The notes under the pieces were generated by a model, which worked only from the letters and a program-made list of their open reading frames with translations, did not search any database and was not told the origin of the DNA. DNA of 40,000 nt, from NCBI RefSeq assembly GCF_030719035.1, contig NZ_CP132203.1:1454579-1494578 (forward strand), in the 5' to 3' direction. Shown here piece after piece: positions 446 through 30,719 of this stretch (positions are counted from its first letter, which is position 1; every line of letters starts with the position of its first letter). The position numbers and the translations under genes were made by a program. The stretch comes from Hahella sp. HNIBRBA332. GTDB lineage: Bacteria > Pseudomonadota > Gammaproteobacteria > Pseudomonadales > Oleiphilaceae.

Positions 446-1312
446 TTAAGCGACTTTCGATGCTTCATAACTCTCTGGGCTGAGATAGCCATTTGCGCTA
501 TGAAGGCGGATTCGATTGTAATCCACTTCGATATACTCAAACACGGCTTCACGCATTTCTTGTCGGGTTGCGTACCGCTCTCCGTGAATCGCTTCCACTT
601 TCAGGGAGTGAAAGAAGCTTTCCACACAGGCATTGTCATAGCAATTGCCTTTGCCGCTCATGCTGCAACGAAGCCCATGCGCCTGAATCAACGTCTGATA
701 GGCTTCTGAGCAATATTGGGAACCTCGATCTGAATGGACGATCACCCCTTTGGGCTGACGTCGACGCCACAACGCCATGCGCAAGGCGTCGCAGACCAGC
801 TCCGATTTCATTCGCTTGCTCATCGCCCAGCCTATGACTTTACGGCTGAACAGGTCCAGCACGACGGCTAGATACAGCCAACCTTCTTCCGTCCACAAAT
901 AGGTGATGTCACCCGCCCATTTTTGATTTATCTCCGTTGCATTAAAGTCCTGCTGAAGAAGGTTTTCCGCCACAGGCAGGCTATGCCTGGAGTGAGTGGT
1001 GGCCTTAAACTTTCTGGCGGCTTTCGCTCTCAAGCCCAAGCGTTGCATGCTTCTGGCCACCGTTTTACGGTTAGCCTGGACTCCCTGTTGCGCCAAGTCT
1101 TTGGTCAGCCGGGGCGCCCCATTACGCTTTTTAGCTTTATCAAAAGCGGCCCCAACTTGGATGTCCAGGGATTGCTGACGCTGTCGTCGCAGAGAAGGGG
1201 CTTTCTGTCGATGGAGCCAAACGTAGTAGCCGCTTCTTGAGACCTGAAGCGCTCTCGCCATGCAAGTGACGCGGAAAAGGCTCGTGTGAGAGTGCATAAA
1301 GGCGTACCTCAC
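446..1312 (-). CDS. IS3-family transposase OrfB (DDE integrase core), presumably expressed as an OrfAB frameshift fusion
   Basis: 288 aa with the rve-type motifs [17 protein letters not shown] and [11 protein letters not shown]. It lies in the -1 frame relative to orfA. Confidence 0.9.
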   Translation of the reverse strand: MRYAFMHSHTSLFRVTCMARALQVSRSGYYVWLHRQKAPSLRRQRQQSLDIQVGAAFDKAKKRNGAPRLTKDLAQQGVQANRKTVARSMQRLGLRAKAARKFKATTHSRHSLPVAENLLQQDFNATEINQKWAGDITYLWTEEGWLYLAVVLDLFSRKVIGWAMSKRMKSELVCDALRMALWRRRQPKGVIVHSDRGSQYCSEAYQTLIQAHGLRCSMSGKGNCYDNACVESFFHSLKVEAIHGERYATRQEMREAVFEYIEVDYNRIRLHSANGYLSPESYEASKVA

Positions 1313-1608
1313 TTCACACTTTTGGCGAAGTACGCCGCCGCTTTTTTTAACACGGCAAGCTCTTCCGCCTGTTCAGCCAACTGACGCTTCAGGCGGGCGT
1401 TTTCCTGGGCCAGTTGCTGTTCCGTTTCGCCACGATCCTGCGCCAGTCGGGCTTTACTGCGCCAATTGTAAAGTTGTGACTCGTGCAGACCCAATTGCCT
1501 TGCGGCGTCGCTCACGCCGATACGTTGAGCTAGCGCCAGGGCTTCCGCCTTGTACTCGTCGGAATAACGTTGGCGAGATTTGGAATTTGATGTTTTCTGT
1601 TTGGTCAT
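1309..1608 (-). CDS. IS3-family transposase OrfA (HTH)
   Basis: 99 aa. Typical IS3 OrfA: HTH then leucine-zipper-like ...ENARLKRQLAEQAEELAVLKKAAAYFAK. It overlaps orfB. Confidence 0.9.
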   Translation of the reverse strand: MTKQKTSNSKSRQRYSDEYKAEALALAQRIGVSDAARQLGLHESQLYNWRSKARLAQDRGETEQQLAQENARLKRQLAEQAEELAVLKKAAAYFAKSVK

Positions 1609-1695
1609 AGTTCACCTCTGTAGCGTAGTTTACTCGCTTAACGGGGTGTCTATCATTGGTGGGTAGGATCAGAAGCACTCAATTTAGGAGCGAAC

Positions 1696-1911
1696 ATGTC
1701 AGAAGTGAATGTATATGAGCAGGCTCTAGTAGCCGTATTAAACGAAGCCAAGTCGATGGGTGTTGAAATAGATAAGTTGTTTGAGAATGTAAGTGCTGGA
1801 ATTATGGGGAATAAACCATACGTGTTGGTTGATTCTACGCATAAAGCAGACGTTATAGATGTTCTTAGAAAAGCAGTCAATAAGCTTGAGTCACGCCACG
1901 CAGAAACTTAA
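1696..1911 (+). CDS. hypothetical small protein (71 aa)
   Basis: ORF track. GGAG 8 nt upstream of the ATG. AT-rich. The IS copy sits in its upstream region. Confidence 0.5.
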   Translation: MSEVNVYEQALVAVLNEAKSMGVEIDKLFENVSAGIMGNKPYVLVDSTHKADVIDVLRKAVNKLESRHAET

Positions 1912-2017
1912 AAGTTGATACTATTTTCGCTGCGTAGTGTGGAGCTATTTTCCACAGGGTTGCACTTTAGCCCTAAAGAAAGGCGTTACATATACTAATG
2001 GATAAGGTGGATATTAT

Positions 2018-3325
2018 ATGGACTGGGAAAAGCTACTCTCTACTAGAAGACAACAAAGCTCACATAAGGGAGATGAGGTGCGGAGTGAATATAATAAAGA
2101 CTACGATAAGATAGTTTTTTCGTCTGCATTTAGGCGTTTAGGAAGGAAGACACAGGTCCACCCTTTAGCGCATCACGATCACGTTCACACTCGTTTAACT
2201 CATTCTTTAGAAGTCGGAAGTGTTGGAAGAAGCTTGGGGCTTAGAGTAGGGAATTTTTTATCAAAAAAAGATGTTCTTCCTCAAGGTGTATGCTCACCAG
2301 AAATTGGTGCAATTGTTCATGCAGCTTGTTTGGCGCATGACATAGGTAATCCTCCATTTGGGCACGCAGGCGAATTTGCTATTCGTCATTGGTTTAAGGA
2401 AAATAGCCACAAACTTTGTTTAAGAAGCCGAAGCGAACGAAATGATTTTGAAATATTTGAAGGCAATGCTCAGGGATTTAGGATCGTATCAAAAATAGAA
2501 AATAATTATAACGATGGAGGTCTGCGATTAACATATGCGACATTGGGGACTTTGGTGAAATATCCATGGTTTTCTAATCACTGTATCGCTGAATCCAAGG
2601 GGAAATTTAACTTTTTTCAGTCAGAGAAGGAGTTTGTAGAAGAAGTAATGGAGGAATTGGGTTTAAGTAGTGGTAACAGCGTCCAGTTTGCTAGGCACCC
2701 TTTATCATTCTTAATGGAAGCCGCTGATGATATTTGTTACATAATACTGGATATAGAAGATGCACTTGAACTAAACATTCTGAGAATTAGAGATACTTAT
2801 GATATATTTGAGAAGCTTTCTGGGGATAATGTTTCAGATGGTAGCTCTTATGATCTGCATCATACAAATCGACGGCTGGTAGCTCCCCTAAGAGCCCGTG
2901 CCATTGAAAACCTGATAATAAAATGTGCAAGTATATTTGAAGAGAATTATGATAAAATAATGTCAGGTGATTTTAATGGAGATCTTATTGGTCATATTAA
3001 AGGGGCCGAAAGCGAAGGTTTGGAAGAGGCTAAAAATGTCACTGAAAAAGATATTTTTATAACCAGAATAAAGGTAGAGCTTGAGATCGGTTCTTACTCT
3101 ATTCTTGAAACAATTTTATCGGCATATATAGACGCCGTTAACGAGTTTAAGGTAGGTAAGTTATCGTTTAAATCAAAACGCGTATTAGCCCTTATGGGTG
3201 CAAATAAGTTAGATGATAATGCTTCTTATCATCAATGTTATCTTCGAGTAACGGATCTGGTTTCAGGAATGACTGATAATCATGCGGCTTATGTGGCGGC
3301 ACAATTATCAGGTCATGTTGGCTGA
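2018..3325 (+). CDS. dgt: dGTPase-family deoxynucleoside triphosphate triphosphohydrolase (HD domain)
   Basis: 435 aa. N-terminal YxxDYDKIVFSSAFRRLGRKTQV, HD-domain metal ligands HTRLTHSLEV and AACLAHDIGNPPFGHAGE, and C-terminal MTDNHA. All are hallmarks of Dgt-like dNTPases. Confidence 0.85.
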   Translation: MDWEKLLSTRRQQSSHKGDEVRSEYNKDYDKIVFSSAFRRLGRKTQVHPLAHHDHVHTRLTHSLEVGSVGRSLGLRVGNFLSKKDVLPQGVCSPEIGAIVHAACLAHDIGNPPFGHAGEFAIRHWFKENSHKLCLRSRSERNDFEIFEGNAQGFRIVSKIENNYNDGGLRLTYATLGTLVKYPWFSNHCIAESKGKFNFFQSEKEFVEEVMEELGLSSGNSVQFARHPLSFLMEAADDICYIILDIEDALELNILRIRDTYDIFEKLSGDNVSDGSSYDLHHTNRRLVAPLRARAIENLIIKCASIFEENYDKIMSGDFNGDLIGHIKGAESEGLEEAKNVTEKDIFITRIKVELEIGSYSILETILSAYIDAVNEFKVGKLSFKSKRVLALMGANKLDDNASYHQCYLRVTDLVSGMTDNHAAYVAAQLSGHVG

Positions 3326-3380
3326 TGTAATAAATTAAATCCTAATGATGCCTGGCGGCGAACGTATTTTAGTGTTTAGT

Positions 3381-3440
3381 ACGGTTTTTCGTGAATGAGA
3401 TAGTTCGAGCCTTTAGGGTTTGTACACTGGAATCATTAAA
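3381..3440 (+). repeat. L-repeat copy 2 (short form)
   Basis: ACGGTTTTTCGTGAATGAGATAGTT...GGGTTTGTACACTGGAATCA aligns to 25743-25797. It lies directly upstream of the lipoprotein ORF. Confidence 0.55.
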
Positions 3441-3445
3441 TCGAT

Positions 3446-3751
3446 ATGAAAACAAAAATAGCCCCAATTTTTCTAATTGTCATGCTCGCTGTGCTTCTTT
3501 ATGGATGTGGCGATAAATGTAGCAGCTATTCAGATTTCTCCTGTAGTGAAATAGAAAACGCTACATATAACGCTTTCTTCTATTTTCCAAACAATAATGA
3601 ATATTATCTTGGTGTGGCACACGGCCTTAGTCAGTGTGGTTCTATGGCGCATAGTTTTGCTTCATCTAAAAACCTTACTGGTAATCGAGAGTGGGGCTAT
3701 ATTTGTTGTATGAAAGTAAAAGGATCAGAATGCTACGAAAAGCACAGGTAA
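3446..3751 (+). CDS. Cys-rich putative lipoprotein (101 aa)
   Basis: Signal peptide plus lipobox (LLYGC). Eight further cysteines in the mature part. Confidence 0.6.
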   Translation: MKTKIAPIFLIVMLAVLLYGCGDKCSSYSDFSCSEIENATYNAFFYFPNNNEYYLGVAHGLSQCGSMAHSFASSKNLTGNREWGYICCMKVKGSECYEKHR

Positions 3752-3755
3752 ATTC

Positions 3756-3968
3756 ATGGATGTAATACTACTAATATTGGGTGTGGCTGCTCTATTTCTA
3801 ATTACTCAAAGATGGTTTTGGGTTTTAGTATTTGGGCTTGGAACTTTGGCAAGTGCCTTCACTGTTATCGCAAGTGTTATCCACTTCCAAATATTAGGGG
3901 CTGTAGGTTTTACAGTTCTGACCTTCATATTATGGGCTATTACAGTCATGATTCTTGGAAGCGACTAA
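3756..3968 (+). CDS. small integral membrane protein (70 aa)
   Basis: Almost entirely hydrophobic, with 2-3 predicted TM helices. It starts 5 nt after the lipoprotein stop. Confidence 0.5.
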   Translation: MDVILLILGVAALFLITQRWFWVLVFGLGTLASAFTVIASVIHFQILGAVGFTVLTFILWAITVMILGSD

Positions 3969-4477
3969 CTCAGTAGCGCTCCGCAGATGTCATACGATGC
4001 ATTGGAGTTTGTAAAGAAAGCGGTTCATCGGAAGTGGCCGTGCCCATAAGTCGATCTCAGGTTTATCAAGAAAGCACGTGTTCGCAGTGAAGCCGCCTTG
4101 ATGACCCTTTCTTATCCTTAGAGACATTTATAAATACTGGCGAACCAATATGATATCCCCCCACCTAGTAGTATAAGCAGGAGAAAGCTTCCTTAATATA
4201 AAAACAGGCGAGACTTATAAGTATGGAATAAGCGGGTATGGTTTGGATCAAAATGGACAGTCAAAAAGGGCTCAGGCTCAGGTGAATAGGCTAAATTGAA
4301 AGGCCGGTTATACACAATAAGTTTCAAAGCTGAAAGCTGCGAATAACTTGCCTCGGATGGATGCGATTAATACAGAAAAGAATTTAACAAGAGGGTATGT
4401 TAAGAATTTTAGAAAATTGCCTCCAGGAATGAAGTATCCAGTGATTAGGCTTCCTTTGCGTAATAGGAGATGATTTC

Positions 4478-5116
4478 ATGTTGATTGATATTGCTGTAAC
4501 AGCAGCCGATTCATATGAAAGAAAGTCGGAGTTTAATGGTACTACAAATTGTGTGTCCGCCATGTTTCTACTGGAGCTGCCCAAACACTATGATGCTGGA
4601 AAGATAGAGAAAATTATTATTGAGCTTGGTCTAGACGAGTCACGGTATTATCTCGATGATGACATTTTGGTATGTTGTAAGCCGTTTGATTTTGAGGCCT
4701 ATTGGAGGCTGAATGACTTTGAGGCAAAAGAGCTTATATTTGAAATAATATACAACACGCTATTTGCGCTGGCTGCTGAGTTTGGCTGGAGAAAGGAGCC
4801 GCTTGAAAATGCGTTGGCAGCCAATAAAGAGAAGGGGTACTCATTAACCTACGGTATTGTGAAAAAGAAAAGTCCAGATAAGGAAAATACTGCAATGCTT
4901 AGTATTGACTTTGGACGATTCGATGCTCGTGTATATGTCAGGTTTGAGTCTGTTAATGATGGGTGTCATGGAGAAGTTGATATAGTGAAAACGCTACCTC
5001 ACACAATATTCTTTGATGATTACCTTGGCAAGATTAAATGGATTGATAATAAAACTGTTGAAGTAATACCATCAGGGAGTGATGCTCCGAAACAATCCAT
5101 AGTCATGCCATACTAA
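4478..5116 (+). CDS. hypothetical protein (212 aa)
   Basis: ORF track. GGAG 8 nt upstream. AT-rich. No motif recognised. Confidence 0.55.
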   Translation: MLIDIAVTAADSYERKSEFNGTTNCVSAMFLLELPKHYDAGKIEKIIIELGLDESRYYLDDDILVCCKPFDFEAYWRLNDFEAKELIFEIIYNTLFALAAEFGWRKEPLENALAANKEKGYSLTYGIVKKKSPDKENTAMLSIDFGRFDARVYVRFESVNDGCHGEVDIVKTLPHTIFFDDYLGKIKWIDNKTVEVIPSGSDAPKQSIVMPY

Positions 5117-5192
5117 AATATCGCCACACTCATTGAGAGTCTATCCGGGAGTTTATTGTTCTAAAATATGGATCAATACTGATTATTTATCG

Positions 5193-5219
5193 CTATTGTT
5201 GACAATTAATGAACAATAG
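5193..5219. promoter_or_regulatory. inverted repeat overlapping a TTGACA box (candidate operator/promoter)
   Basis: CTATTGTT-N11-AACAATAG perfect 8-bp inverted repeat. TTGACA at 5199-5204 sits inside it. Confidence 0.3.
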
Positions 5220-5250
5220 GGTAGGCTTTACCCTACATTCTGCACTATTG

Positions 5251-5276
5251 CGCCCTGACAACTCTCAGGGCGTTTT
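5251..5276 (+). terminator. rho-independent terminator
   Basis: CGCCCTGA-caactc-TCAGGGCG followed by TTTT. Confidence 0.6.
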
Positions 5277-5286
5277 CATATAGAGA

Positions 5287-5314
5287 CCCGGTATCCGAAA
5301 GGAACCGGGTTTTT
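5287..5314 (+). terminator. rho-independent terminator (copy A of a duplicated element)
   Basis: CCCGGT-atccgaaagga-ACCGGG followed by TTTTT. The surrounding 45 bp is repeated at 6198-6240. Confidence 0.6.
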
Positions 5315-5458
5315 GTGTTTTAGAGGGCCGCTCGCCGTTGCATGGAGAGGGGGTAACTCGGCCCATTCAGGAAGGATCATGACACCAGAACACGTAGTAC
5401 CTACACCGGGAGTTCAACTTCACTTATCTGATCGCTCTATGCTTTAGCATCAATATAG

Positions 5459-5505
5459 AGGCTATACTTTTGTGATAATGAGGTGTATACGAATGTGCAT
5501 ACGGG
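5459..5505 (+). repeat. L-repeat partial copy (5' module only)
   Basis: GGCTATACTTTTGTGATAATGAGGTGTATACGAATGTGCATAC aligns to 221-266. It contains an extended -10-like TGTGATAAT and lies 30 nt upstream of ORF 5537. Confidence 0.5.
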
Positions 5506-5536
5506 TATGTGAAAAATAGAAGGGTGAGGTGTCATC

Positions 5537-6067
5537 ATGGGGCCAAGTGCATTCATTATATTTGAAAATAAGCCATCGAGTGAGAATTCGTCACAGTTGG
5601 AAGAAGCTCTGATCGAACTAGGGCATGACATCGAATTTGGATTTATCTATCCGGGCGATGAATATTGGTGTTACGAGGAAGACGAGCTTGAATTGATTAA
5701 AGAAAAAACTTCCATGTCTGTATGTGGAGTATTTGAAATATCTTGCCCAAGCAATTCTGCTAGTTCTCATCGAGATTTGGGGCAAGCTGCACTCATCGCT
5801 TGCGAATACCTCTCTGGTCTAGTTGATTTTAATGGGGCTATTATCCCTGAGCTGCCTCGCATAATGTATAAAGGTATGTGGCTTTGGGAAAAAGCTAATT
5901 GGGCAGATGTTGAACCTTATTTTTTAGAAATGGTTAAAGAAATTAGTGGTAAGGTCTACACAATCGAATATGAAACTGCAAATAATAGAATCTGGGCTCA
6001 TCACATTTGTGACAAGGAATTTATGGCTAATTGGCTTAAGCATCCCATGTTTAGAATGATAAAATGA
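5537..6067 (+). CDS. hypothetical protein (176 aa)
   Basis: ORF track. GGTGAGG upstream of the ATG. AT-rich module lying between the duplicated terminator elements. Confidence 0.55.
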   Translation: MGPSAFIIFENKPSSENSSQLEEALIELGHDIEFGFIYPGDEYWCYEEDELELIKEKTSMSVCGVFEISCPSNSASSHRDLGQAALIACEYLSGLVDFNGAIIPELPRIMYKGMWLWEKANWADVEPYFLEMVKEISGKVYTIEYETANNRIWAHHICDKEFMANWLKHPMFRMIK

Positions 6068-6202
6068 GCCTGTATTTAGATAAGCTTCGGTTCCTTTCAG
6101 GATTAGCCTGGTTATCATCCTTCAAGCGTAGCAAGCAAACTATGAAAAGAATGGTACTCATTTCTTTCCTGGTTTAATAAGCGCGCAACCTCACAATTAG
6201 AG

Positions 6203-6232
6203 GCCCGGTATCCGCAAGGAGCCGGGTTTTTT
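6203..6232 (+). terminator. rho-independent terminator (copy B of the duplicated element)
   Basis: GCCCGG-tatccgcaaggag-CCGGG followed by TTTTTT. Confidence 0.6.
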
Positions 6233-6242
6233 GCTTTCTAGA

Positions 6243-6265
6243 GCCTCGCTTACGCGGGGCTTTTT
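6243..6265 (+). terminator. second hairpin plus T-run immediately upstream of the endolysin gene
   Basis: GCCTCGC-ttac-GCGGGGC followed by TTTTT. Confidence 0.5.
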
Positions 6266-6277
6266 CGTTTCTGGGTT

Positions 6278-6670
6278 ATGCAAAACATGAGCTTCTACTT
6301 AGGAAAGCGCTCCAAGTCGCGCTTGGTTGGCCTGCATCCTGACCTTGTGAAAGTAATAGAGAGAGCGATTCAGATCAGCCCTATCGATTTCACTGTGCTG
6401 GAAGGCCTGAGAACTATCGAGCGCCAAAAGGAACTGTATAAGGCTAGCAAATCAAAGACGATGCGCAGCCGCCATTTAACGGGGCATGCGGTGGATCTGG
6501 GTGTTTTGATTAACGGGGCGATCACCTGGGAAACCCGCTATTACCAGATACTCGCCGACGCTGTTAAGCAAGCCGCCGAAGGGCTGGGCATTCCCATAGA
6601 GTGGGGCGGCGACTTCAACGGCTTTTTCGACGGACCTCATTATCAACTGCCGTGGAAAGAATACCCATGA
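6278..6670 (+). CDS. phage endolysin, peptidase M15 family (zinc D,D- or L-Ala-D-Glu peptidase type)
   Basis: 130 aa. Zn-ligand motifs SRHLTGHAVD and DGPHYQ. First gene of the lysis cassette. Confidence 0.8.
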   Translation: MQNMSFYLGKRSKSRLVGLHPDLVKVIERAIQISPIDFTVLEGLRTIERQKELYKASKSKTMRSRHLTGHAVDLGVLINGAITWETRYYQILADAVKQAAEGLGIPIEWGGDFNGFFDGPHYQLPWKEYP

Positions 6671-7071
6671 GCGCCTGGGCTTCAATTCTGAACCTGTTTA
6701 AACCCGTCGCAGATCTGATAGACAACGTCCACACCAGCGACGAAGAGCGCCTGCAGATACAGGCACAGCTATTTCAGATTCAGGCCGAGCTAACCCAGCG
6801 AGTGATGGAATACGAAACCAAGCTGCTGGAGGCGAAGGCCAGAACGATCCAAGCGGAAGCGCAAGGCCAAAGCATCCTACAGCGCAACTGGCGCCCGCTA
6901 ACCATGCTGTGTTTTCTGGCGCTGGTCGTGTGTGACTCCTTTGGCCTGCTGACGTTCCGGCTAAGCGTGGAAGCCTGGGATCTGCTGCAAATAGGCTTAG
7001 GTGGATATGTCGCCGGCAGATCGCTGGAGAAGATCGCCCCCAAGGTAACCGACGTGATGAGTAAGAAATAA
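6667..7071 (+). CDS. holin, 3TM type (GTA_holin_3TM-like)
   Basis: ATGA start/stop overlap with the endolysin at 6667-6670 (track start 6601 trimmed). HTSDEER motif, coiled segment, then WRP plus C-terminal TM helices, as recalled for that family. Confidence 0.65.
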   Translation: MSAWASILNLFKPVADLIDNVHTSDEERLQIQAQLFQIQAELTQRVMEYETKLLEAKARTIQAEAQGQSILQRNWRPLTMLCFLALVVCDSFGLLTFRLSVEAWDLLQIGLGGYVAGRSLEKIAPKVTDVMSKK

Positions 7072-7349
7072 TGGAAGAGAACCAAACCACCCGGAGGCAC
7101 TGGCACTTGGACAAAACCATCAGTGTGGGCCACCTGATCAGCACGCTGGTAATCGCCATTTCCGTGATCACCTGGGCGGGCTCCATAGATCGCCGTGTGG
7201 AGCAAAACGCGCTGGCGGTTAAGTACCTGAATGAAGAGCAAGTGCAACAGCGTCAGCGTATCGACTCCGTCCGCAATGAGATTAAAACCGACCTGCGAGC
7301 CATCAACGACAAGCTAGACCGCCTGATCGAGCGGCAGAGTGAACGGTAA
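7071..7349 (+). CDS. lysis-cassette membrane protein (N-terminal TM plus coiled coil; spanin-like by position)
   Basis: 92 aa. One TM (LISTLVIAISVITWAG) followed by a heptad-like region. Start overlaps the holin stop. Confidence 0.35.
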   Translation: MEENQTTRRHWHLDKTISVGHLISTLVIAISVITWAGSIDRRVEQNALAVKYLNEEQVQQRQRIDSVRNEIKTDLRAINDKLDRLIERQSER

Positions 7350-7774
7350 TGCCCAAGGCATCGCTAAGGCCCTGCAAAGATAAGGGCTGTCCCAATACGA
7401 CCCGGCACAAATCCCGATACTGTGAGAACCACGCAGACAAACGGGAGGCGACACGCTGGGGAGTCTGGCAACAACTGAAGGGCAGCGACACCCAACGCGG
7501 TTATGGTTGGCAATGGCGCAAGATTAGAGCGCGGATATTGCGGCGGGATAACTACCTGTGTCAGGTGTGTTTAAAGGCGGGGCGAACAAGTGCGGCCACA
7601 GAGGTGGATCACATCAAGCCCAAGGCGAAAGGAGGAGGTGACCGGGAGGAAAATTTGCAGGGAATTTGTAGGGCTTGTCATCTCTTGAAATCTGTAAGCC
7701 AGATCTTGATAGCCGTTATTTCTCAAACTGTAAGCCTGACCACATGGAAATCGATGAGGGTAAAGCGAGCCTAA
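7349..7774 (+). CDS. phage HNH endonuclease with a replaced 3' end
   Basis: EVDHIKPKAKGG...NLQGICRACH is the HNH core. After codon His at 7679-7681 the sequence turns AT-rich and the tail (LLKSVSQILIAV...) is not HNH-like. The expected tail is found at 9376-9408. Confidence 0.75.
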   Translation: MPKASLRPCKDKGCPNTTRHKSRYCENHADKREATRWGVWQQLKGSDTQRGYGWQWRKIRARILRRDNYLCQVCLKAGRTSAATEVDHIKPKAKGGGDREENLQGICRACHLLKSVSQILIAVISQTVSLTTWKSMRVKRA

Positions 7775-7807
7775 AATCCGACTCTACGCATATTCCTCAG
7801 TATATAG

Positions 7808-7861
7808 GTAAGCAATAGGGCCGTAGGAGCACTGGTAAAGCCATGCTTTTTTGCGTTATTT
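7808..7861 (+). repeat. attC-like hairpin upstream of the ABC permease gene
   Basis: GTAAGCAA...TTGCGTTATTT. TAAGCAA (7809-7815) pairs with TTGC(G)TTA (7851-7858) leaving one bulged G. The 3' end resembles the ..GGCGTTATATTTT ends of attC sites in the array. Confidence 0.3.
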
Positions 7862-7873
7862 TAAAGTCCACGG

Positions 7874-8635
7874 ATGTTACAGGATGAGAAAAAATTGAAG
7901 AAATGGATAACGAATAACTACAGGCTAAGTCGTTTATTTATCCTCGAACAGGTGCGTGAGCCTCTTACACTATTCTGGACTCTAATAGCTCCGCCGTTGC
8001 TATTTGTGTTTCTTAACCTTGATCCTCTTGTCTCCGGCGCAGCTACCACCGGATGGTATGAAGAACAAGCCTCTTGGTATCTAAGTTATTTGGCTCTCTC
8101 GGTCTCCTTGTTTGGGTTCGCATTGTACTTTGTAGGGAGGCGTGAAAGTGGATTTATAAAGTCATTCATTCAGGGTAAGGAAGCCAAGGCCCTTTTTTTA
8201 TCAGCGCAAATCAGCGCGTCTCTTCTGCTTTCGTGCTTTTGTTTTATTGTTTTCATAGTGATAACAACAGTTGCTTTTGGGGTGAGTCCCTTAGATGCTC
8301 TGACAAGGTTTGCGATACCATTCCTGATTATTATGGTTACATTCGTGTGGAGCGCTCTATTTATCTCGGTACTCCCATTAACTTTTATGAATGCTAATTC
8401 TGGCATCTCAATTTTTTTTATGGCATTGCTGATGTTCAGTATCGCTGGCTTCAAGGCAAATATACCGGCGCTTTCTTATCTCAACCTTTTCAATCCTCTG
8501 TCAATTGCAACTCAATTTATGGCAAGTGGCGGCCTACACAGCGTAGAGTCAATAGGAACCATTGCACTTATGACTGCCTTAGGTGGAGTTGGCTTAGTCC
8601 GTATGAAAACAAGCCCAACATGGAGCCGACAATGA
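7874..8635 (+). CDS. ABC-2 type transporter permease
   Basis: 253 aa with about 6 hydrophobic helices in an ABC-2 exporter-like layout. Stop overlaps the ATPase start (ATGA). Confidence 0.7.
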   Translation: MLQDEKKLKKWITNNYRLSRLFILEQVREPLTLFWTLIAPPLLFVFLNLDPLVSGAATTGWYEEQASWYLSYLALSVSLFGFALYFVGRRESGFIKSFIQGKEAKALFLSAQISASLLLSCFCFIVFIVITTVAFGVSPLDALTRFAIPFLIIMVTFVWSALFISVLPLTFMNANSGISIFFMALLMFSIAGFKANIPALSYLNLFNPLSIATQFMASGGLHSVESIGTIALMTALGGVGLVRMKTSPTWSRQ

Positions 8636-9354
8636 CCTCCACTGTAATTAGCGGGAACAATCTCACGTTCAAGTATTCGAAAAAGAGTGTTTTCAATAAT
8701 ATTTCATTTTCTTTCGAGAGTGGTTATGTGATTGGCCTGCTGGGTGAAAATGGCGCAGGAAAGACCACCCTGTTTGATTTGGTAAGTAGAGAGCTTGTCC
8801 CAACTAGCGGTGAGCTGACTTTTAATGTCGAGGCAGAAGCTATCGCCTATTTGCCCCAGATTGTTACGCTGCCCCCTTCGTTGCGAATAAAAGAAGTCCT
8901 GGAGATGATATCTTGCTTCCAGAACCGCGATATGGATCAGTCTGCGTCTGACATGGCTCGGTTATGGCCTGATCATATGCAACAGCGTTACAACGAGATT
9001 AAGGACCATCGTGCTGGCGTCTGTAGCTACGGAGAGAAGCGGTGGTTTGTGACCGCAGCAATGCTAGCTATATGTCAAAAGTCGATCTTTATTCTTGATG
9101 AGCCGACTGCAGGTGTAGATGTTCAATACCGCTATCTCATCTGGCAGCTCATTAAGGAGATGAAAAGAAGAGGATGCTCGATAATCGTTTCCTCGCACAT
9201 ACTGGACGAAATTGGCGCAAACACGGATTATTTTTATTTTCTCCAAAAGACGGGCATTCATAAGTTTAATGGCATGAAGGACTTCTTGGAGCGATTCAAC
9301 GCAAGTACTCCCGATGAAGCTTTCATAAAGGCGACTGTGCTTGAGGCAGGCTGA
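8632..9354 (+). CDS. ABC transporter ATP-binding protein
   Basis: Walker A GENGAGKTT, Q-loop YLPQ, degenerate signature SYGEKRW, Walker B FILDEPTAGVD, H-loop SSHIL. Start set at the ATG overlapping the permease stop (track start 8620 is also possible). Confidence 0.85.
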   Translation: MTSTVISGNNLTFKYSKKSVFNNISFSFESGYVIGLLGENGAGKTTLFDLVSRELVPTSGELTFNVEAEAIAYLPQIVTLPPSLRIKEVLEMISCFQNRDMDQSASDMARLWPDHMQQRYNEIKDHRAGVCSYGEKRWFVTAAMLAICQKSIFILDEPTAGVDVQYRYLIWQLIKEMKRRGCSIIVSSHILDEIGANTDYFYFLQKTGIHKFNGMKDFLERFNASTPDEAFIKATVLEAG

Positions 9355-9366
9355 TCGCTTGGTCAA

Positions 9367-9408
9367 GCTTTCCATCGAGACAAGACGTTGCTGGATGGCT
9401 CCAGATAA
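9367..9408 (+). pseudogene. displaced 3' end of the HNH gene
   Basis: Reads AFHRDKTLLDGSR-stop. Joining 7681 to 9376 gives ...CRACHRDKTLLDGSR-stop, a canonical CHxxKT HNH ending. The GC-rich phage composition resumes here. Confidence 0.55.
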
Positions 9409-9608
9409 CTGGCGTGTCAGTCTTAGGGGTAGTACCGAACGCACCATAGGGCACGCCACAGTGGCTAGGGTGTGGCAGATCAAAAAATGATCAAATATCG
9501 AAAATTGGAAGGGGCGGGGCGGGTCAAATTTCTGATATCTGAGCCACCAACACCGCACCCCTAAGTCTTTTTTTATACCCGCGAAATTAAAAATTTCAGG
9601 TTAACGCA

Positions 9609-10085
9609 ATGAGTGGAACCGCAACCAGAGCTGGAAGGGGGCGGAAGCCCAAGCCCGTTGCGCAAAAGCTCCTGGCCGGCAACCCCGGAAAGCGTCAACT
9701 TAACACCCACGAACCCCAGTTTTCCCAGATCACTAACATCGACTGCCCGGACTGGCTGGGCGATGACGCACGCCGCATGTGGGAGCTGATCGCCCCGGAG
9801 CTATGCGCGCAAAAGATCATCGCCATTACAGACGTGCATAACCTGGAAGCCTTCTGCGCCGCCTATGGTCGCTGGCGTCAGGCGGAAAGAGAACTGGCGC
9901 AATATGGCATCACTATTACGGACGCAAACGGCGGCCTGAAGAAAAACCCGGCGGCCACCGTCGCCAATGAATCCTTAAAACAACTGGCGACCTTCGGGGC
10001 GCTCCTGGGCCTGGACCCATCCAGTCGCCAACGTCTGACCGGCGGCGGCAACCACGACACGTCAAACCCCTTCGATAAATTCTGA
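9609..10085 (+). CDS. terS: phage terminase small subunit, P27 family
   Basis: 158 aa. [24 protein letters not shown]-terminus and ..[10 protein letters not shown].. are typical of P27-family TerS. Located between HNH and terL. Confidence 0.85.
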
Positions 10086-10099
10086 TTTTCGGTTATTCC

Positions 10100-11818
10100 A
10101 TGGCTGCTAAATATCCTCATGTCGAGGCGGCGACGCGGTACGCCCGCGCCGTGCTGGACGGGTCTATCCCTGCGTATCGGTACACGCGCTTGGCGTGCCA
10201 GCGTTACCTGGACGATCTCGCCCAGGAGAGCGACCCGGACTATCCGTATTACTTCGACAAGGCGGAGGCCGAGCGAGTGTGCGAGTTCGTCGAACTACTA
10301 CCGCACACCAAAGGCGAGTGGGCGTTCAAGCGTCAGCTTATCAAGCTGGAGCCCTGGCAGGTGTTCGGCTTCGTCAACATCTTCGGATGGAAGAGCAAGG
10401 CCGACGACCTGCGCCGCTTCCGCGAAGTCTATTGGTGCGTCCCGCGTAAGAACGGCAAGTCGATCATCGCCGCCGGCGTGGGGCTGTATATGTTCGCCTG
10501 CGATAACGAGTTTGGCGCCGAGGTCTACAGCGGCGCCACCAACGAGCGCCAAGCCTGGGAGGTATTCAGACCGGCCAAGCTGATGGTCTCCCGCACGCCT
10601 CTACTTCAGAAAGCAAAAGGGATCGCGGTCAATGCAAAGAACTTAAATCGCCCGGCGGATGAAGCGCGCTTTGAGCCGGTCATCGGTAAGCCCGGCGATG
10701 GCGCGAGTCCGTCCTGTGCGCTGATCGATGAGTACCACGAACACGACGCCCCCGACTTATACGAGACCATGGTGACGGGGCAGGGCGCACGCCGGCAGCC
10801 GCTGACGTTTATTATCACCACCGCCGGTAACAACATCGAAGGCCCTTGCTACGACAAGCAGACCGAGGCGCAAGAGATGCTGGACGGCGTCGCACCGAAT
10901 GACGAGCTGTTCGCGCTGATGTATGGCGTGGATGATCCGGAGCGCTGGGCGGACCCGGACGTATTGGCGATGGCCAATCCGAATCTGGGCGTCAGTGTGT
11001 ACAAAAAATACCTGGAGAGCCAGCAACAGAAGGCGATTCGCAGCGCCCGCTTTCAGAACATATTCAAAATTAAACACCTGAATATATGGGTTACCGCCCG
11101 CAGCGCCTTTTTCAATATGGAACAGTGGGGCAAATGCTTTGACCCCAGCATGAGCGTGGAAGACTTCGAAGGCCAAGAGTGTATCGGCGGCCTCGACTTG
11201 GCCGGCAAACTCGACCTTAACGCTTTCATCAAGCTGTTCTACCGCGACCTGATGGACGAGGACGGAAGAACCCGCCGGCATTACTACTGCCTCTCGCCCG
11301 TGTTCTGGGCGCCCGAGGATACGGTTAACAACCCGGACAACCGCAAGCTATCCAGTCGCTATCAGAAGTGGGTCAACCTGGGGGCGCTCACCGCCACCGA
11401 TGGCGCGGAAGTGGACTATCTGGAAGTGTTGGCGGAAGTCACCGACACCAACCAACGCCATCCTATTGCGGAGATCGGCATCGATCCACACGGCGCGCTG
11501 AACCTGTCGCACCGCCTGGACGACGAGAACCTGAACCCGGTGCAGATCACGCAGAACTATTCCGGTATGTCCGCCGGCATGAAAGAGCTTGAAGCGGCCA
11601 TCGCGGCCGGGCGTTTTCATCATGACGGCCATCCGATTTTAACCTGGTGTATGGGCAACGTAGTCGGACGCTACATGGGCGGCGCCGATGACGACATCGT
11701 TCGCCCAACCAAGGAACACAAAGACAAAAAAATCGACGGCGCGGTTGCGCTCATCATGGCCGTGGGCCGCGCTATGTTGGCGGCGGAAACCACCGGCCCC
11801 AGCATAAGGTTTGCCTGA
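10100..11818 (+). CDS. terL: phage terminase large subunit
   Basis: 572 aa. Walker A-like [14 protein letters not shown] (Walker B), and a C-terminal nuclease region with DGAVALIMA. Synteny. Confidence 0.9.
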
Positions 11819-23300: not shown

Positions 23301-25571
23301 ATCGGCTCGCCTGACATACGCGAGGCCTTGCCCCTGGTGACGCCCAAAGTGATGTTGGTGGACCGTGGACAGGAAGCCAATCACTATCTGGGAAGAGATG
23401 CGCACTTTTATATCTACTATGGCTCTGGCTACCAAGAGCCCCCGCACTTCGCTTTCTATGAGATAACGGTTTACCACAAAGGCCTGCAGGTGCGCCGGGA
23501 GTACATACCCGGCAGGAGTTACACCTACACCAGCGAGATGAACCTGGAGGACGGCAACAGCCGAGAGATTGGCTTAAGCGTGCGCCCTTGGGGGAAACAG
23601 AACCAGACCGGGCAAGCGGCTGTTATCAGCGTGTCCAACCCGGCGCCCAAGGTCACCGTCAACAATACCGTGGCGGGGATCAGCACGGCGCGCACTTATC
23701 TGACCGACATCACTGACCCGGATTTCAAATCCATCAAGGTCTACCGGTCAACGGTGAAAGGCTTTACGCCCAGCCCGGATAACCTGGTGTATGACGGCTA
23801 CACCAACCCGGTTATCCATGAAGGCTTGCAGCCGGACACCACCTACTATTTCCGGTTGCTGGGCGCGGATGAGTTCGGCGATGGCGAACTGACGCCTGAG
23901 TTCAGCTTCAAGACGCAGCCGTTTAATCTGGCGGGCGAGCTGAGCGACGGCGACAACCTGATCGTGCGCGGCAATGTCGTTAGCGAATATAGCGGCTCAA
24001 AAGTGATCCTGGGACCGCTCAAGCGCGACGGTTATTTCAATGTGCTGGAAGCCAGCGCGGCGAATGCGCCCATATTCGAGGTCAGGGAAAACGGCGACCT
24101 TTTGCTTGGCAGCGAGCAAAGCGGCTCTTATGCAATCTGGGATCAGTCCGAAAAAGCGTTCAAGGTGTTCGGTCAGATCAACATCGCGGCGGGGAGCAAG
24201 GGCTATTCCGCCCTGCAGGATCGCCCCAGTTCGTTGTCAGCGATCAACGCAGCGGAAGCCGGTAAGTTGCAAGGCATTCAGGACGGCGCCACCAAAGGCG
24301 CGGACTGGGGGCAGGTGTCGGGCATTCCGCAACGGTTTTCCGATAGCGCTACGCCCGGTCTCAACCTGACGGCGGACTACCTTGGCTTTCATAATGGCAG
24401 CCGATTCACCACCTACATGGACCGAAACGGCCACTTCGCCCTGAACGCTGGCGCGGCGAATAACTGCCTAAGCTGGAATGGCTCCGTGCTGTCCGTGCGT
24501 GGGGATGTGTTGGCCACCAGCGTCGCGGCGAGCGTCAGTCTGAGCGCGCCGACTATTAGCGGCGGCACGATCCAAGGAACGCACATCACGGGAACCACCA
24601 TTAATGGCGGCGCTATCAACGGAACCAGTATCACCGGCGCCACGGTGACGGGCTCCACTATGCAGACCGCCAGCAGCGGCAAGCGGATGATCTTGTCCTC
24701 GGCTTCTAATGAGTTAGAGTTCTATGGAGATCGTGGCGATGGCCAAATTGCCAAGCTTGCAACGATAGGGATTAGTCAAAGAGACAGTGATCGATACATA
24801 GGAAATTTTGGAGGTATCGATGCTGGATACTCTGCAATAGGTGTTCTGGCAACCTCATACAGTAATAACGGCCTATCCGCGGCTTCAATTAAGGGGACAG
24901 GAGGCGAATTTTCATCAAGAGAAAGAACGGCTGTTAGGGGATTAACCTGGGGAGTGAATCAAGTTGGAGTTGAAGGGGCAACGCAAGGCGGGGGAGCCTC
25001 TTCAATTGGTGTGAGAGGGTATTCAACAACTGGTAGAGGTGTTCAGGGACATGGCGCGACCTATGACTTCTATGCCTCGGGTGTCGGATCAAACTACGGA
25101 CCCTTTACTGGCGGGCATGATTGCCTTATCGATAAGGCGGAGATAACAAGACAAGGCCAAGTCCTGATATATGACCGGGTTGTCGCACGAGCGAATGTCT
25201 CAAACGTTCTGCATACCGTTAGGCTGTCATCGGAACCTATGCAAAAAGGAAAAGCCGGAGTGCTTGTCTCCCGAACTGCTATGAGCAATGACGAGAAACC
25301 TGCGGCACTATTGGAGTTGAATGGGTTGGAGACTAAGTACGACATGGGGGTAATGAACGCCTTGGGCGAAGGTCAGGTTCTGGTCTGCGCAGAGCGCGGC
25401 GACATTGAGATAGGCGACTACATCGTCACCTCAAACCGACCCGGCATTGGCATGCGCCAGGATGATGACGTGCTGCGTAGCTACACCATCGCGGAGGCAC
25501 GCGAGGCGGTTAACTGGACAGAGGAGGAAAGCGACGAGAGGTTGATCTCGTGTAAGTATCTTTGTGGTTGA
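20301..25571 (+). CDS. giant tail tip / host-specificity / fibre protein (1756 aa)
   Basis: Last structural gene after the TMP. Gly-rich beta-helix-like segments, repeated Fn3-like modules, and the short repeat run GGTIQGTHITGTTINGGAINGTSITGATVTGS. The C-terminal region is compositionally distinct. Confidence 0.8.
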   Translation: MRANNSEFASAWSGESVSPVYVVELSFDRSNEDVVHLTSGPVSGLSGVVYDGVLNARTLSGTSQKIQPDKGLASIGSLEFEALDHNLSALQKAKLDDGKGLRGKRVRVLVGERGLQWQDFVLVATQIIEDAEFLDGVYSFSCADVQRTLRKDIFDVKKVGLAVSAVGNHDVIQVYSTEGFAPVYQPRGSGITDAPNQTVGYLKMPNGCIVRYKYTTATAFWGCEWGALGTKHLVATVNKSEDTNADNAPQVEEYVYIEQPAPMLLYGLLTGYIYGYPGKRYPDHWHLGVDPQYVRTSDFINIGSDLWDVTDADKGLPAVVRGQTKIDGKKFIEEQLLLMMGAFSPIYANGEMGLRRRTAIMSSGAYVRELNASNLLKVDALRHDMGAIINQIAIHWHYDPDKKEYRRANVLVDPDSIATHGASDLKELKFKTLHSSRHAYSAIKHQFDALRDAYAGPPLLLDVVADMDNHDLEVGDIVRVNLEHVQDYTGSMADGRLDRNFEIQQITTDWVTGRVKLALLGSSQPAGALPPDQNGAALPDAWYSSAGVAINAASFPGKVLVTDTQVRIVGDISLTGGVDLHQSVYYCDRDLTVDAGVTVVLSGNVQLRVKGFLQINGMVDGKGRGIEGVAGGQSVALTGIGSTVAGDGIVFGLGTGDRRRFESANNRGGINARAARDNVAYLNLTVNAQGQLQGLPSDIRGNGGHGGGAAINRYGGNTGETPGGRGGAGGAGLLVVARGIVLGANGRVDTSGVDGELGSPRQIGGNMDPKAYLKSGSGAGGAPGAVYYLVDGKYNPPNVTVGNSAARYGLSPVQDGVYFIQGRKHQNDTVGASWDPSFEGITKAVASAYVGNYLGPERENAVRGFLTKATGQAPNMAESWHRVQILSGYQPPVVMEEVANKPLRITVTESVNTPRTPDGNISTLELSAVPPDDPNYSHAFFQYRPADGAGWTDLGSAAPELTLQLVSDGKKYYFRAFGVSKSGKRSANYAATSAAVSRIEIGSPDIREALPLVTPKVMLVDRGQEANHYLGRDAHFYIYYGSGYQEPPHFAFYEITVYHKGLQVRREYIPGRSYTYTSEMNLEDGNSREIGLSVRPWGKQNQTGQAAVISVSNPAPKVTVNNTVAGISTARTYLTDITDPDFKSIKVYRSTVKGFTPSPDNLVYDGYTNPVIHEGLQPDTTYYFRLLGADEFGDGELTPEFSFKTQPFNLAGELSDGDNLIVRGNVVSEYSGSKVILGPLKRDGYFNVLEASAANAPIFEVRENGDLLLGSEQSGSYAIWDQSEKAFKVFGQINIAAGSKGYSALQDRPSSLSAINAAEAGKLQGIQDGATKGADWGQVSGIPQRFSDSATPGLNLTADYLGFHNGSRFTTYMDRNGHFALNAGAANNCLSWNGSVLSVRGDVLATSVAASVSLSAPTISGGTIQGTHITGTTINGGAINGTSITGATVTGSTMQTASSGKRMILSSASNELEFYGDRGDGQIAKLATIGISQRDSDRYIGNFGGIDAGYSAIGVLATSYSNNGLSAASIKGTGGEFSSRERTAVRGLTWGVNQVGVEGATQGGGASSIGVRGYSTTGRGVQGHGATYDFYASGVGSNYGPFTGGHDCLIDKAEITRQGQVLIYDRVVARANVSNVLHTVRLSSEPMQKGKAGVLVSRTAMSNDEKPAALLELNGLETKYDMGVMNALGEGQVLVCAERGDIEIGDYIVTSNRPGIGMRQDDDVLRSYTIAEAREAVNWTEEESDERLISCKYLCG

Positions 25572-25667
25572 GGAGGGCACTCCTCCCCACCTCTGCGCAG
25601 TTTGAGTAAATGCCGAGTTTGTGAAATTGGGGTTAGGCTCTCAGCTTCAATGGAAACTGGTTCTGGA

Positions 25668-25856
25668 AAGTGCTTTGATTCAATAAGTTGGGATCTGGCT
25701 TGTTGTGATAACGAGCCCCCAAGAAAGTGTATATGCGCACGCACGGTTTTTAGAAAATGAGATGGTTTTACTTTTCGGGGTTTTTACACTGGAATCAGTG
25801 AGCTGGAGGGGGTATCTTCGAAGTCTTGAAATTGAAGAACGCGCATGCGCGATATA
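25668..25856 (+). repeat. L-repeat copy 3, abutted by the IS; continues as GTTAGGG at 28944-28950
   Basis: Aligns to 186-390 with indels (TTCAATAA.., ACGGTTTTT..AATGAGAT.., TGGAATCA..TGGAGG..AACGCGCATGCGCGATATA). Confidence 0.6.
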
Positions 25857-25919: not shown

Positions 25920-26219
25920 ATGACCAAACAGAAAACAACAAATTCCAAATCTCGCCAACGTTATTCCGACGAGTACAAGGCGGAAGCCCTGACGCTAGCT
26001 CAACGTATCGGCGTGAGCGCCGCCGCAAGGCAATTGGGTCTGCACGAGTCACAACTTTACAATTGGCGCAGTAAAGCCCGACTGGCGCAGGATCGTGGCG
26101 AAACGGAACAGCAACTGGCCCAGGAAAACGCCCGCCTGAAGCGTCAGTTGGCTGAACAGGCGGAAGAGCTTGCCGTGTTAAAAAAAGCGGCGGCGTACTT
26201 CGCCAAAAGTGTGAAGTGA
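25920..26219 (+). CDS. IS3-family transposase OrfA
   Basis: 99 aa, 3 substitutions relative to copy 1. A7 slippery run at 26180-26186. Confidence 0.9.
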   Translation: MTKQKTTNSKSRQRYSDEYKAEALTLAQRIGVSAAARQLGLHESQLYNWRSKARLAQDRGETEQQLAQENARLKRQLAEQAEELAVLKKAAAYFAKSVK

Positions 26220-26624
26220 GGTACGCCTTTATGCACTCTCACACGAGCCTTTTCCGCGTCACTTGCATGGCGAGAGCGCTTCAGGTCTCAAGAAGCGGCT
26301 ACTACGTTTGGCTCCATCGACAGAAAGCCCCTTCTCTGCGACGACAGCGTCAGCAATCCCTGGACATCCAAGTTGGGGCCGCTTTTGATAAAGCTAAAAA
26401 GCGTAATGGGGCGCCCCGGCTGACCAAAGACTTGGCGCAACAGGGAGTCCAGGCTAACCGTAAAACGGTGGCCAGAAGCATGCAACGCTTGGGCTTGAGA
26501 GCGAAAGCCGCCAGAAAGTTTAAGGCCACCACTCACTCCAGGCATAGCCTGCCTGTGGCGGAAAACCTTCTTCAGCAGGACTTTAATGCAACGGAGATAA
26601 ATCAAAAATGGGCGGGTGACATCA
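26216..26624 (+). pseudogene. IS3 orfB, 5' exon (interrupted by the intron)
   Basis: Identical to the copy 1 OrfB protein through ...NQKWAGDI. The reading frame then runs into intron sequence. Confidence 0.85.
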
Positions 26625-29712: not shown

Positions 29713-29755
29713 ACAGAAGCTCAGAATAAACCATGGTGGATAATTTGGTAACAAC

Positions 29756-29839
29756 CTATAACAAGGCGGTGTTGTCGCCTTCGGCTGGGACTGCCATTCC
29801 GCTGGCGCTCCATGTCAGCCCCAAACCACGGCGTTATAC
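29756..29839 (+). repeat. attC site 2
   Basis: R'' CTATAAC, AAGGCGGTGTTGTCGCCTTCGGCTGGGAC..., R' GTTATAC. Near-identical to attC 15. Confidence 0.85.
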
Positions 29840-29842
29840 GCT

Positions 29843-30337: not shown

Positions 30338-30382
30338 CAAGGCGCTGCAACCGACCTCCGGCGGCTGAGCGCGGCGTTAAAT
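30332..30382 (+). repeat. attC site 3 (short; degenerate R'')
   Basis: GTATAGC AAGGCGCTGC...GAGCGCGGC GTTAAAT. Confidence 0.6.
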
Positions 30383-30397
30383 GCTAAGAGAGATTGC

Positions 30398-30715: not shown

Positions 30716-30719
30716 ATGC

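Follow-up and report, generated by a model that had tools for sequence, protein, structure and literature searches.

An orphan McbE/McbF-type pump at a cargo hotspot within the HNH gene of a Hahella aquimaris prophage

What is a two-gene exporter doing inside the 3′ end of a phage HNH endonuclease gene, and how did it come to be there? The question is raised by a stretch of 40,000 nucleotides (nt) from the chromosome of Hahella aquimaris (contig NZ_CP132203.1), referred to here as the window, which contains the late region of an HK97-like prophage. In this prophage the HNH open reading frame (ORF; 7349-7774 (+), 141 amino acids, aa) departs from its conserved sequence directly after a catalytic His codon. 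It is followed, before the terminase genes begin, by genes for an ATP-binding cassette (ABC) permease and an ABC ATPase, the latter 100% identical to a Hahella aquimaris protein. Homology and genomic context identify this cargo as McbE/McbF, the export and immunity pump of microcin B17-type operons. The insert is probably an orphan McbE/McbF immunity pump that the prophage carries as a moron and that would give resistance to a competitor's gyrase poison.

The mcbE-like permease gene occupies 7874-8635 (+) and encodes 253 aa from the ATG at 7874, or 246 aa if the TTG at 7895 is the start. The mcbF-like ATPase gene spans 8620-9354 (+), starting either at ATG 8620 or at ATG 8632, which overlaps the mcbE stop; the form annotated by NCBI has 240 aa, as against 244 aa. 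The mcbE stop and mcbF start share the sequence ATGA (8632-8635), and the Escherichia coli pair also overlaps by 4 nt. The permease aligns with E. coli McbE over its full length without gaps (30% identity, 237 aa, E 2e-40) and is 56% identical to the McbE-position protein of a complete mcb operon (L018). Its partner is 40% identical to McbF of an E. coli plasmid over 239 aa (E 7e-69) and 66-72% identical to the McbF-position proteins of Pseudomonas-type operons. Domain searches of the insert assign the ATPase to Pfam ABC_tran only, and the permease scores 19.0 bits against ABC2_membrane (PF01061; E 1e-3), below the gathering cut-off of 26.9. The permease is placed in the ABC-2 class through homology with McbE, itself described as being of ABC2 type (PMC6722960). 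Kyte-Doolittle hydropathy, a crude method, gives it 6-7 hydrophobic segments of 19 residues. NCBIfam has no McbE or McbF model and returned only generic ABC matches far below their cut-offs; PHROGs matched the ATPase, and not the permease, to moron families labelled only "ABC transporter", and no solved structure is related in sequence to the permease. An original prediction, made from the letters of the window, had proposed a translationally coupled ABC-2 exporter: the two-gene ABC cassette with its ATGA overlap holds, and the generic exporter becomes, specifically, McbE/McbF.

The ATPase carries a Walker A motif (GENGAGKT), a Q-loop, a Walker B motif (ILDEPT), an H-loop and, in place of the usual LSGGQ signature, the sequence CSYGEKRW. 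In 24 aligned sequences of the McbF family, E. coli McbF included, residues S136, G138, E139, D160, E161, P162 and T163 are invariant, and Y137, K140, R141, the signature Trp and H193 are conserved in at least 90%. The Walker A, Walker B and H-loop motifs had been called intact, as the family alignment bears out. The signature had been called degenerate, yet CSYGEKRW is conserved in 24 of 24 aligned members; the unusual motif is therefore a family trait and not decay.

The genomic contexts of the homologues are what decides the name of the pair. The ATPase family is small and sharply separated, with about 31 clusters and a jump in E value from 1e-36 to 1e-22 where generic ABC proteins begin; the permease family has 80 clusters among 1.84 billion representatives. 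Six lineages of ATPase homologues (70, 66, 53, 45, 47 and 34% identity) all lie within mcb-type operons. Their gene order is a small ORF, McbB (PF27891), a nitroreductase-type dehydrogenase, a YcaO protein, a 246-aa permease, the ATPase and often a pentapeptide-repeat protein, which is the mcbABCDEFG layout of microcin B17. The plasmid matches of the ATPase are three Pseudomonas amygdali copies at 72%, followed by E. coli plasmids on which the match adjoins an annotated mcbE. In metagenomes, 40 of the 47 McbF loci with enough flank have McbB/C/D next to them. Such operons also keep mobile company. The complete mcbA-G operon of L018 (GCA_027942505.1, 2252-11419) lies beside a Tn3-family transposase and a resolvase, and another mcb operon (L103) is flanked by integrases, insertion sequence (IS) elements and a relaxase; from these neighbours, mcb clusters appear highly mobile.

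Unlike these operons, the window pair stands alone. Directly upstream of mcbE, positions 7785-7873 (+) contain a decayed fragment of mcbD (YcaO) together with the mcbE 5′ leader. Homology to the cassette of Hahella sp. NBU794 begins at 7785. The fragment reads EHW*SHAFLRYFK in the window (asterisk, stop codon) and ELWPSFAFLSYFK in the NBU794 locus (L011), matching McbD residues ~248-279 of three mcb operons; the NBU794 copy is ~79% identical in nucleotide sequence to the mcbD of L014 over ~39 nt (hand count). Because this remnant lies directly upstream of mcbE, the cassette must descend from a complete mcb operon by deletion, in which mcbA-D were lost except for the short scrap of mcbD; mcbG is also absent. 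Beyond this scrap of ~90 nt, no similarity to McbA-D or McbG was found in the 40-kb window, and blastx of the junctions revealed no McbG and no second McbD remnant. A search with McbD returned 34 McbD-type YcaO family members, none labelled Hahella, from a database that contains Hahella proteomes. On this evidence the pair is, within the 40-kb window, an orphan descendant and not part of a producer operon.

Composition agrees with this origin. GC content is 0.56 in the conserved HNH part (7349-7681), 0.43 in 7682-7873, 0.43 and 0.46 in the two ABC genes and 0.59 in terS-terL. Everywhere examined, mcb operons are AT-rich islands (0.35-0.48 GC, compared with 0.48-0.62 in their flanks), which accounts for the low GC of the insert. 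The only other close copy belongs to Hahella sp. NBU794 (87% protein and 81.5% DNA identity), with homology limited to 7785-9344. This copy, also an orphan, is flanked by SBP_bac_3 genes and is located downstream, by ~20 kb, of the same prophage in decayed form. Between the two copies, dN/dS is 0.085 for McbE and 0.071 for McbF at a dS of ~1, which indicates that both have long been kept as working genes without the toxin genes. These values bear directly on the idea that the cassette is a functionless hitch-hiker, debris of an mcb operon that landed in a recombination hotspot and has not yet decayed. The attached mcbD pseudogene scrap, the disrupted HNH tail and neighbouring DNA with many IS elements and with a group II intron are what such debris might look like. 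Strong purifying selection at this divergence, two intact ORFs with every ATPase motif present and a preserved ATGA coupling make it highly improbable.

How might the pump serve its host? In microcin B17-type operons, McbE/McbF is the ABC exporter of the inner membrane that removes an azole-containing gyrase poison, so that the producer is in part immune to it. In E. coli, McbEF exports microcin B17 (MccB17) and holds its intracellular level low, giving partial resistance to which McbG adds target protection (PMC6722960); by poisoning gyrase, MccB17 gives rise to double-strand breaks (PMC12858515). In the Hahella lysogen, if the genes are expressed there, McbE dimers would form a membrane channel and McbF dimers, produced by ATGA-coupled translation, would hydrolyse ATP. 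A microcin B-like peptide entering the cell would then be pumped back out, and the lysogen would tolerate the toxin of a competitor. MccB17 induces the SOS response, so the pump would also guard the prophage, a lower toxin level sparing it DNA damage and untimely induction. Many Pseudomonas mcb clusters lack mcbG, from which it follows that McbEF may suffice for protection (PMC12858515), and in E. coli a correlation exists between orphan mcbF/mcbG genes and resistance to MccB17 (PMC10926693). Among the roles first proposed for the exporter was immunity to a toxin or peptide, and the McbE/McbF homology points in that direction.

Several points weigh against this role. To our knowledge, no producer of a microcin B-like peptide has been described from the habitat of Hahella. 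The insert has no mcbG, and McbEF alone provides only partial protection in E. coli (PMC6722960). Orphan status is read from a window of 40 kb in a genome of 7.2 Mb. The HNH protein, presumed still to function, now ends in CHLLKS and 26 foreign residues. A crude consensus scan, covering sigma-70-type sites only, detected neither a sigma-70-like promoter upstream of mcbE nor a terminator to either side of the pair; transcription may therefore depend on the late operon and be confined to lytic growth. Finally, the E. coli proteins that have been studied by experiment share only 30-40% identity with the window pair, whose substrate specificity could differ.

This last point, together with reports that mcbEFG raised the quinolone resistance of E. 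coli 2- to 8-fold (PMC6722960), favours a pump that is merely descended from McbEF and handles another substrate, as part of a broader drug or peptide efflux (for instance, of quinolone-like gyrase poisons or of another peptide made on the ribosome and modified after translation). Orphan pairs are also found elsewhere, at 7 of the 47 metagenomic loci with enough flank and in one further lineage (P0027). Their neighbours, where scanned or annotated, are housekeeping genes, and such ordinary chromosomal surroundings suggest a use independent of a nearby toxin cluster. However, nearly every non-orphan member of the small family is tied to McbBCD, and the attached mcbD scrap shows recent descent from an mcb operon; a changed substrate is accordingly considered unlikely.

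The promoter scan is also relevant to a role in the life of the phage itself, in which the cassette would act during lytic growth or superinfection by keeping gyrase usable, by excluding other phages or by some unrecognised defence. Without a detected promoter or terminator of its own, co-transcription with the late genes is plausible, and the same site holds toxin-antitoxin and signalling genes in related prophages. PADLOC gave partial matches for the ATPase, but these cover segments common to ABC ATPases in general, and it returned no match for the permease; the defence-system reading was rejected on these grounds, and the anti-phage defence role raised in the original prediction has no support. 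Among 2.9 million viral contigs of IMG/VR, neither the ATPase protein nor the back-translated CSYGEKRW motif found a relative, which argues that the McbF type is not a recurrent phage function. A phage-serving role is very unlikely, and immunity to a microcin B-like toxin is retained as the preferred function.

How the pump reached the HNH gene can be read from the gene itself. Its conserved part (7349-7681 (+)) ends at the catalytic His codon (7679-7681). The HNH/zinc motif is complete (Pfam HNH, E 3.8e-13, residues 71-115, profile positions 1-45 of 47), and the HNH endonuclease of PDB entry 5H0M aligns with residues 1-115 (E 1e-18). The protein reads ...GICRACH up to this codon and then continues as LLKSVSQILIAVISQTVSLTTWKSMRVKRA. 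The new C-terminal tail (7682-7774 (+); 30 codons, LLKSVSQ...KRA) is read into the inserted DNA and has no homologue, query coverage reaching at most 84% in a search of 5.8 billion proteins. Compared with the usual CHxxKT ending, the present ORF has CHLLKS, in which Lys at +3 is kept and Thr at +4 is replaced by Ser, and then 26 unrelated residues. The tail looks like read-through into foreign DNA, with the tail of a donor HNH gene as an alternative origin. The left junction segment (7682-7784 (+)) shows no similarity to the relatives, to the NBU794 cassette locus or to mcb genes; it contains a 15-nt imperfect direct repeat (7689-7703 / 7725-7739).

The displaced 3′ end of the gene lies at 9364-9408 (+) and reads QAFHRDKTLLDGSR; from 9367 to 9408, 1.7 kb downstream of the His codon, the frame is AFHRDKTLLDGSR. 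When the insert is removed, the joined HNH protein has 120 aa, the same length as the HNH protein of Vibrio anguillarum H20-like phages, with which it aligns end to end (100% of its length). In Vibrio phage Her this 120-aa protein ends in CHKEKTAKESRR*, with terS 6 nt further on. For six relatives from IMG/VR that are more distant, the gap between the end of the HNH match and terS is estimated at 120-300 nt, which leaves no space for cargo. The insert-free distance from HNH stop to terS, 200 nt, is within the 6-300 nt estimated for these seven uninterrupted distant relatives. A related Hahella prophage (L003), whose terS is 97% identical, contains an HNH 3′ fragment, PKTQGGDVR*ANLRGICQACH*DKTLLDGS (E 2e-9), whose tail DKTLLDGS is that of the window remnant (30 of 36 nt identical, hand count). 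All 12 homologous HNH ends, from relatives and fragments, carry CHxxKT. These lines of support are independent of the reconstruction itself and indicate that the HNH gene is really interrupted. The original prediction fared well at this point: coordinates, translation and GC all agree with an HNH gene that is canonical up to the His codon and then acquires an AT-rich, unrelated tail. The proposed join to a displaced end, restoring a normal CHxxKT ending, is backed by the 120-aa Vibrio protein, the L003 fragment and the terS spacing.

Four related Hahella prophage loci (L001, L003, L105 and L106) were compared with the window by blastn. One of them, L001, is a contig of 2.5 kb whose first letters already belong to the cargo, and the left break was thus read in the other three. 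In L003, L105 and L106, nucleotide identity of 89-91% extends through the lysis genes and HNH and ends at window positions 7680-7682. Homology resumes at 9469 (L003), 9483 (L001) or 9510 (L106), at or just before the G-rich run GGGGCGGGGCGGG, ~100 nt upstream of terS. A conserved non-coding block upstream of terS (9469-9608 (+)) forms the right border of the variable region. Between HNH and terS, the window has mcbEF, L106 (Hahella sp. HN01) a 496-aa PAS histidine kinase, L001 (a second HN01 prophage) ParE and a 219-aa protein, and L003 a GNAT-like gene, an RHH/ParE pair and ORFs of 220 and 95 aa. In L105 (NBU794), HNH is followed by GCV_H, transglutaminase-core and other genes. Because three relatives break within 2 nt of the same His codon with other cargo, the site just after this codon is a recurrent cargo hotspot. 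The mcbEF cassette is absent from every relative examined and is therefore not a core gene of the lineage; its composition does not match that of the phage, and none of these relatives has the same long HNH tail in place of a CHxxKT ending.

The HNH ends also appear to preserve a record of repeated joining. After CH, the tails differ among relatives (RMKT..., RSKT..., SHKT...). L003 has three HNH 3′ ends in series, every one with separate cargo behind it. They belong to the full gene, to a 5′-truncated copy ending CHRRKTSQS* and to the ...CH*DKTLLDGSI fragment. Two such layers are present in the window. This suggests that new DNA was repeatedly joined after the last catalytic codon, with older tails pushed towards cos. 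In the window, the cassette would have recombined in just after the His codon, the catalytic residues being kept and the old tail moved 1.7 kb downstream. The join could be a homologous recombination event in the conserved sequence coding for NLQxICxxCH, or else an illegitimate one kept by selection for an intact HNH.

The one-off capture that had first been proposed is a single illegitimate insertion of 1.7 kb, guided by 9-10 bp of microhomology. It is supported by a 10-bp repeat at exactly both junctions, GCTTGTCATC (7673-7682) and GCTTTCCATC (9367-9376), which is present as originally described with 8 of 10 positions matching, and by the read-through-like new tail, for which no homologue exists among HNH proteins. 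The repeat is weak by itself, with a chance, estimated by hand, of ~4e-4 at any one position and of a few percent across a search of 100 nt. Moreover, the repeat is the Ala-Cys-His codons of HNH, present in both layers, and not a target-site duplication. Against a single event are the shared breakpoint (within 2 nt) in three close relatives with unrelated cargo and the three stacked HNH 3′ ends of L003. The foreign two-gene cassette inside the HNH 3′ end thus stands, and its capture as an isolated event is somewhat doubtful. The two views are compatible, as the repeat may mark a microhomology joint and such joins may be how the hotspot works. Other routes were rejected. A transposon insertion is contradicted by the lack of terminal inverted repeats and of a transposase at the borders, the repeat being duplicated HNH coding sequence. 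An integron cassette is contradicted by the position of the attC-like repeats of the window, which are confined to 29.7-39.9 kb and absent from the cassette borders.

The relatives also differ outside this interval. L105 (Hahella sp. NBU794, CP192738.1, 2717254-2731631) is a prophage remnant with intact lysis genes and HNH. Beyond its cargo it matches only the 3′ end of the window tail-fibre gene (25353-25856); its terS-to-tail module has therefore been deleted. L106 (2228-3948 and 7250-8740) has the PAS/HisKA/HATPase sensor kinase in its HNH-terS gap and, elsewhere, two SBP_bac_3 genes; the SBP_bac_3 pair is located between antiterminator Q and a DNA methylase.

The hotspot abuts what may be the packaging signal. 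The G-rich run at 9511-9523 is a candidate cos site, and if it is real, the insert would lie at the right end of the packaged genome. A 12-nt inverted repeat (9419-9430 / 9557-9568; AGTCTTAGGGGT / ACCCCTAAGTCT, 92% complementary) brackets the conserved G-rich block; it could belong to the region recognised in cos/terminase action, or it could be due to chance. It had been suspected that an insertion here might interfere with packaging; no sign of this was seen, since the block from the G-rich run onward is intact and the relatives tolerate 1.5-2.5 kb of cargo in this place. The packaging signals thus appear untouched. A bolder reading makes the interval from the last HNH catalytic codon to cos a dedicated cargo-capture site with a readable stack of acquisitions, which would hold the first known virus-borne microcin B immunity pump and spread resistance to gyrase poisons among marine bacteria. 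HNH/terminase cutting near cos would perhaps make recombinogenic ends at such a site, and each capture would push the previous HNH tail and its cargo outward. In this full form the proposal is distinctly unlikely.

The surroundings are those of a late phage region. An M15 endolysin gene (6278-6670) and a holin gene with three transmembrane (TM) segments (6601-7071) are followed by an ORF of 92 aa and then by HNH. On the other side, terS (9609-10085 (+)) and terL (10100-11818 (+)) match Pfam Terminase_4, TerL_ATPase and TerL_nuclease and mark the start of the HK97-like structural module, with portal-, protease- and capsid-sized ORFs downstream of terL (synteny with L106) and then tail-sized ORFs. 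Among named phages, the H20-like prophages of Vibrio anguillarum come nearest (TerL 63%, HNH 50% identity), and a near-identity DNA search of GenBank phages gave no match to 6200-11000.

Other parts of the window also carry mobile or foreign-looking DNA. A low-GC block (2018-6067; 0.38-0.41) between an IS element and the lysis genes may be a second moron region; it contains a 435-aa HD-domain protein, a DUF6368 protein and two ORFs (101 and 212 aa) without a Pfam match, and positions 1673-3326 are 88% identical in the NBU794 prophage remnant. Directly after a 1756-aa tail-fibre-like gene lies an IS3-family element (25920-28913) with orfA at 25920-26219 and orfB split into 26216-26692 and 28389-28913. 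The interruption is a group II intron (Rfam RF01999 at 26653-26771, RF00029 at 28380-28455) with a reverse transcriptase (RT)/maturase ORF at 27136-28392; in L003, too, a group II intron RT stands at the start of the locus, a short way upstream of the endolysin gene. Three further IS3-family copies with orfA and orfB are present at 446-1608 (-), 35064-36223 (+) and 37356-38515 (-), the last two inverted and bracketing 36213-37395 in the manner of a composite transposon. The region 29700-39900 has low GC (0.40-0.45) and many small same-strand ORFs without Pfam matches. It is probably a chromosomal integron cassette array, as it contains four attC-type, Vibrio cholerae repeat (VCR)-like elements (TAACAARGC...GGCGTT, 71-77 nt) at 29759, 32449, 36941 and 39803, compared with a chance expectation of 0.02. 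A stretch of this region is 97% identical in Hahella sp. NBU794 (L011, 1363-3399), ~6 kb before the orphan mcbEF of that strain.

What would such a pump mean for its carriers? Descriptions of McbEF-type pumps have until now come from plasmids, chromosomes and transposons and not from phages, and none of 66 metagenomic loci has a HNH, TerS or TerL homologue of the window phage beside McbF. In the searches made, the window pair appears to be the first phage-borne McbEF. If the pump works as proposed, it would represent lysogenic conversion to bacteriocin resistance by means of a pump from the microcin B17 system, and would hint that gyrase poisons of the microcin B-like kind are important in the sea. 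The components, a bacteriocin immunity pump, orphan immunity genes and phage morons, are each known; their combination is modestly novel in the phage-borne McbEF and in the stacked record of HNH tails. The Hahella prophages also provide a natural series for the study of moron entry, with one shared in-gene breakpoint, five different cargoes and fossil HNH ends.

Several known systems place the locus in context. The nearest relatives of the pair are the microcin B-like clusters of Pseudomonas syringae, P. amygdali and P. fluorescens (McbF 66-72%, McbE 56%; Metelev 2013, cited in PMC6722960; PMC12858515), which, like the insert, are low-GC islands in genomes of higher GC, many of them without mcbG. 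They are mostly complete producer operons, whereas the Hahella copies retain only a scrap of mcbD; an exception is a P. amygdali plasmid copy for which an incomplete gene table lists only McbF and McbG. The McbE/McbF pair of E. coli microcin B17, encoded on plasmid pMccB17 (Garrido et al. 1988, summarised in PMC6722960), has the same two-gene architecture, similar sizes (about 241-253 and 243-244 aa), the 4-nt ATGA overlap, collinear full-length homology, the same unusual SYGEKRW signature and an ABC-2-type permease with ~6 TM segments. The window pair differs in being only 30% and 40% identical, in standing without mcbA-D and mcbG, and in residing on a prophage, in a marine host of the Oceanospirillales, and not on a conjugative plasmid of enterobacteria.

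The packaging-associated HNH endonuclease of HK97-like phages is represented by HK97 gp74 and by the HNH endonuclease of PDB 5H0M. The window gene resembles this type in its size of ~120 aa, in its CxxC...CxxCH motif and in the type's place immediately upstream of terS-terL-portal. In the window, however, the 10 C-terminal residues are replaced by 30 unrelated ones (CHLLKS... in place of CHxxKT...), and the gene is 1.8 kb away from terS. The bor gene of lambda is a phage moron in the lysis-to-cos interval. As in bor-type morons and other cargo hotspots of temperate phages, genes of foreign composition lie here between late-region landmarks and differ in content among sister phages. In contrast to those, the Hahella cargo has no evident promoter or terminator of its own, it begins on the left within a gene, past the final catalytic codon of HNH, and old HNH 3′ ends are stacked behind it. 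A last parallel is found in the orphan MccB17 immunity genes of resistant E. coli (PMC10926693). There an mcbF orthologue and mcbG are flanked by transposases, and here mcbE and mcbF, without mcbG, are carried by a prophage; in both cases, mcb immunity genes reside on mobile DNA apart from the biosynthetic genes.

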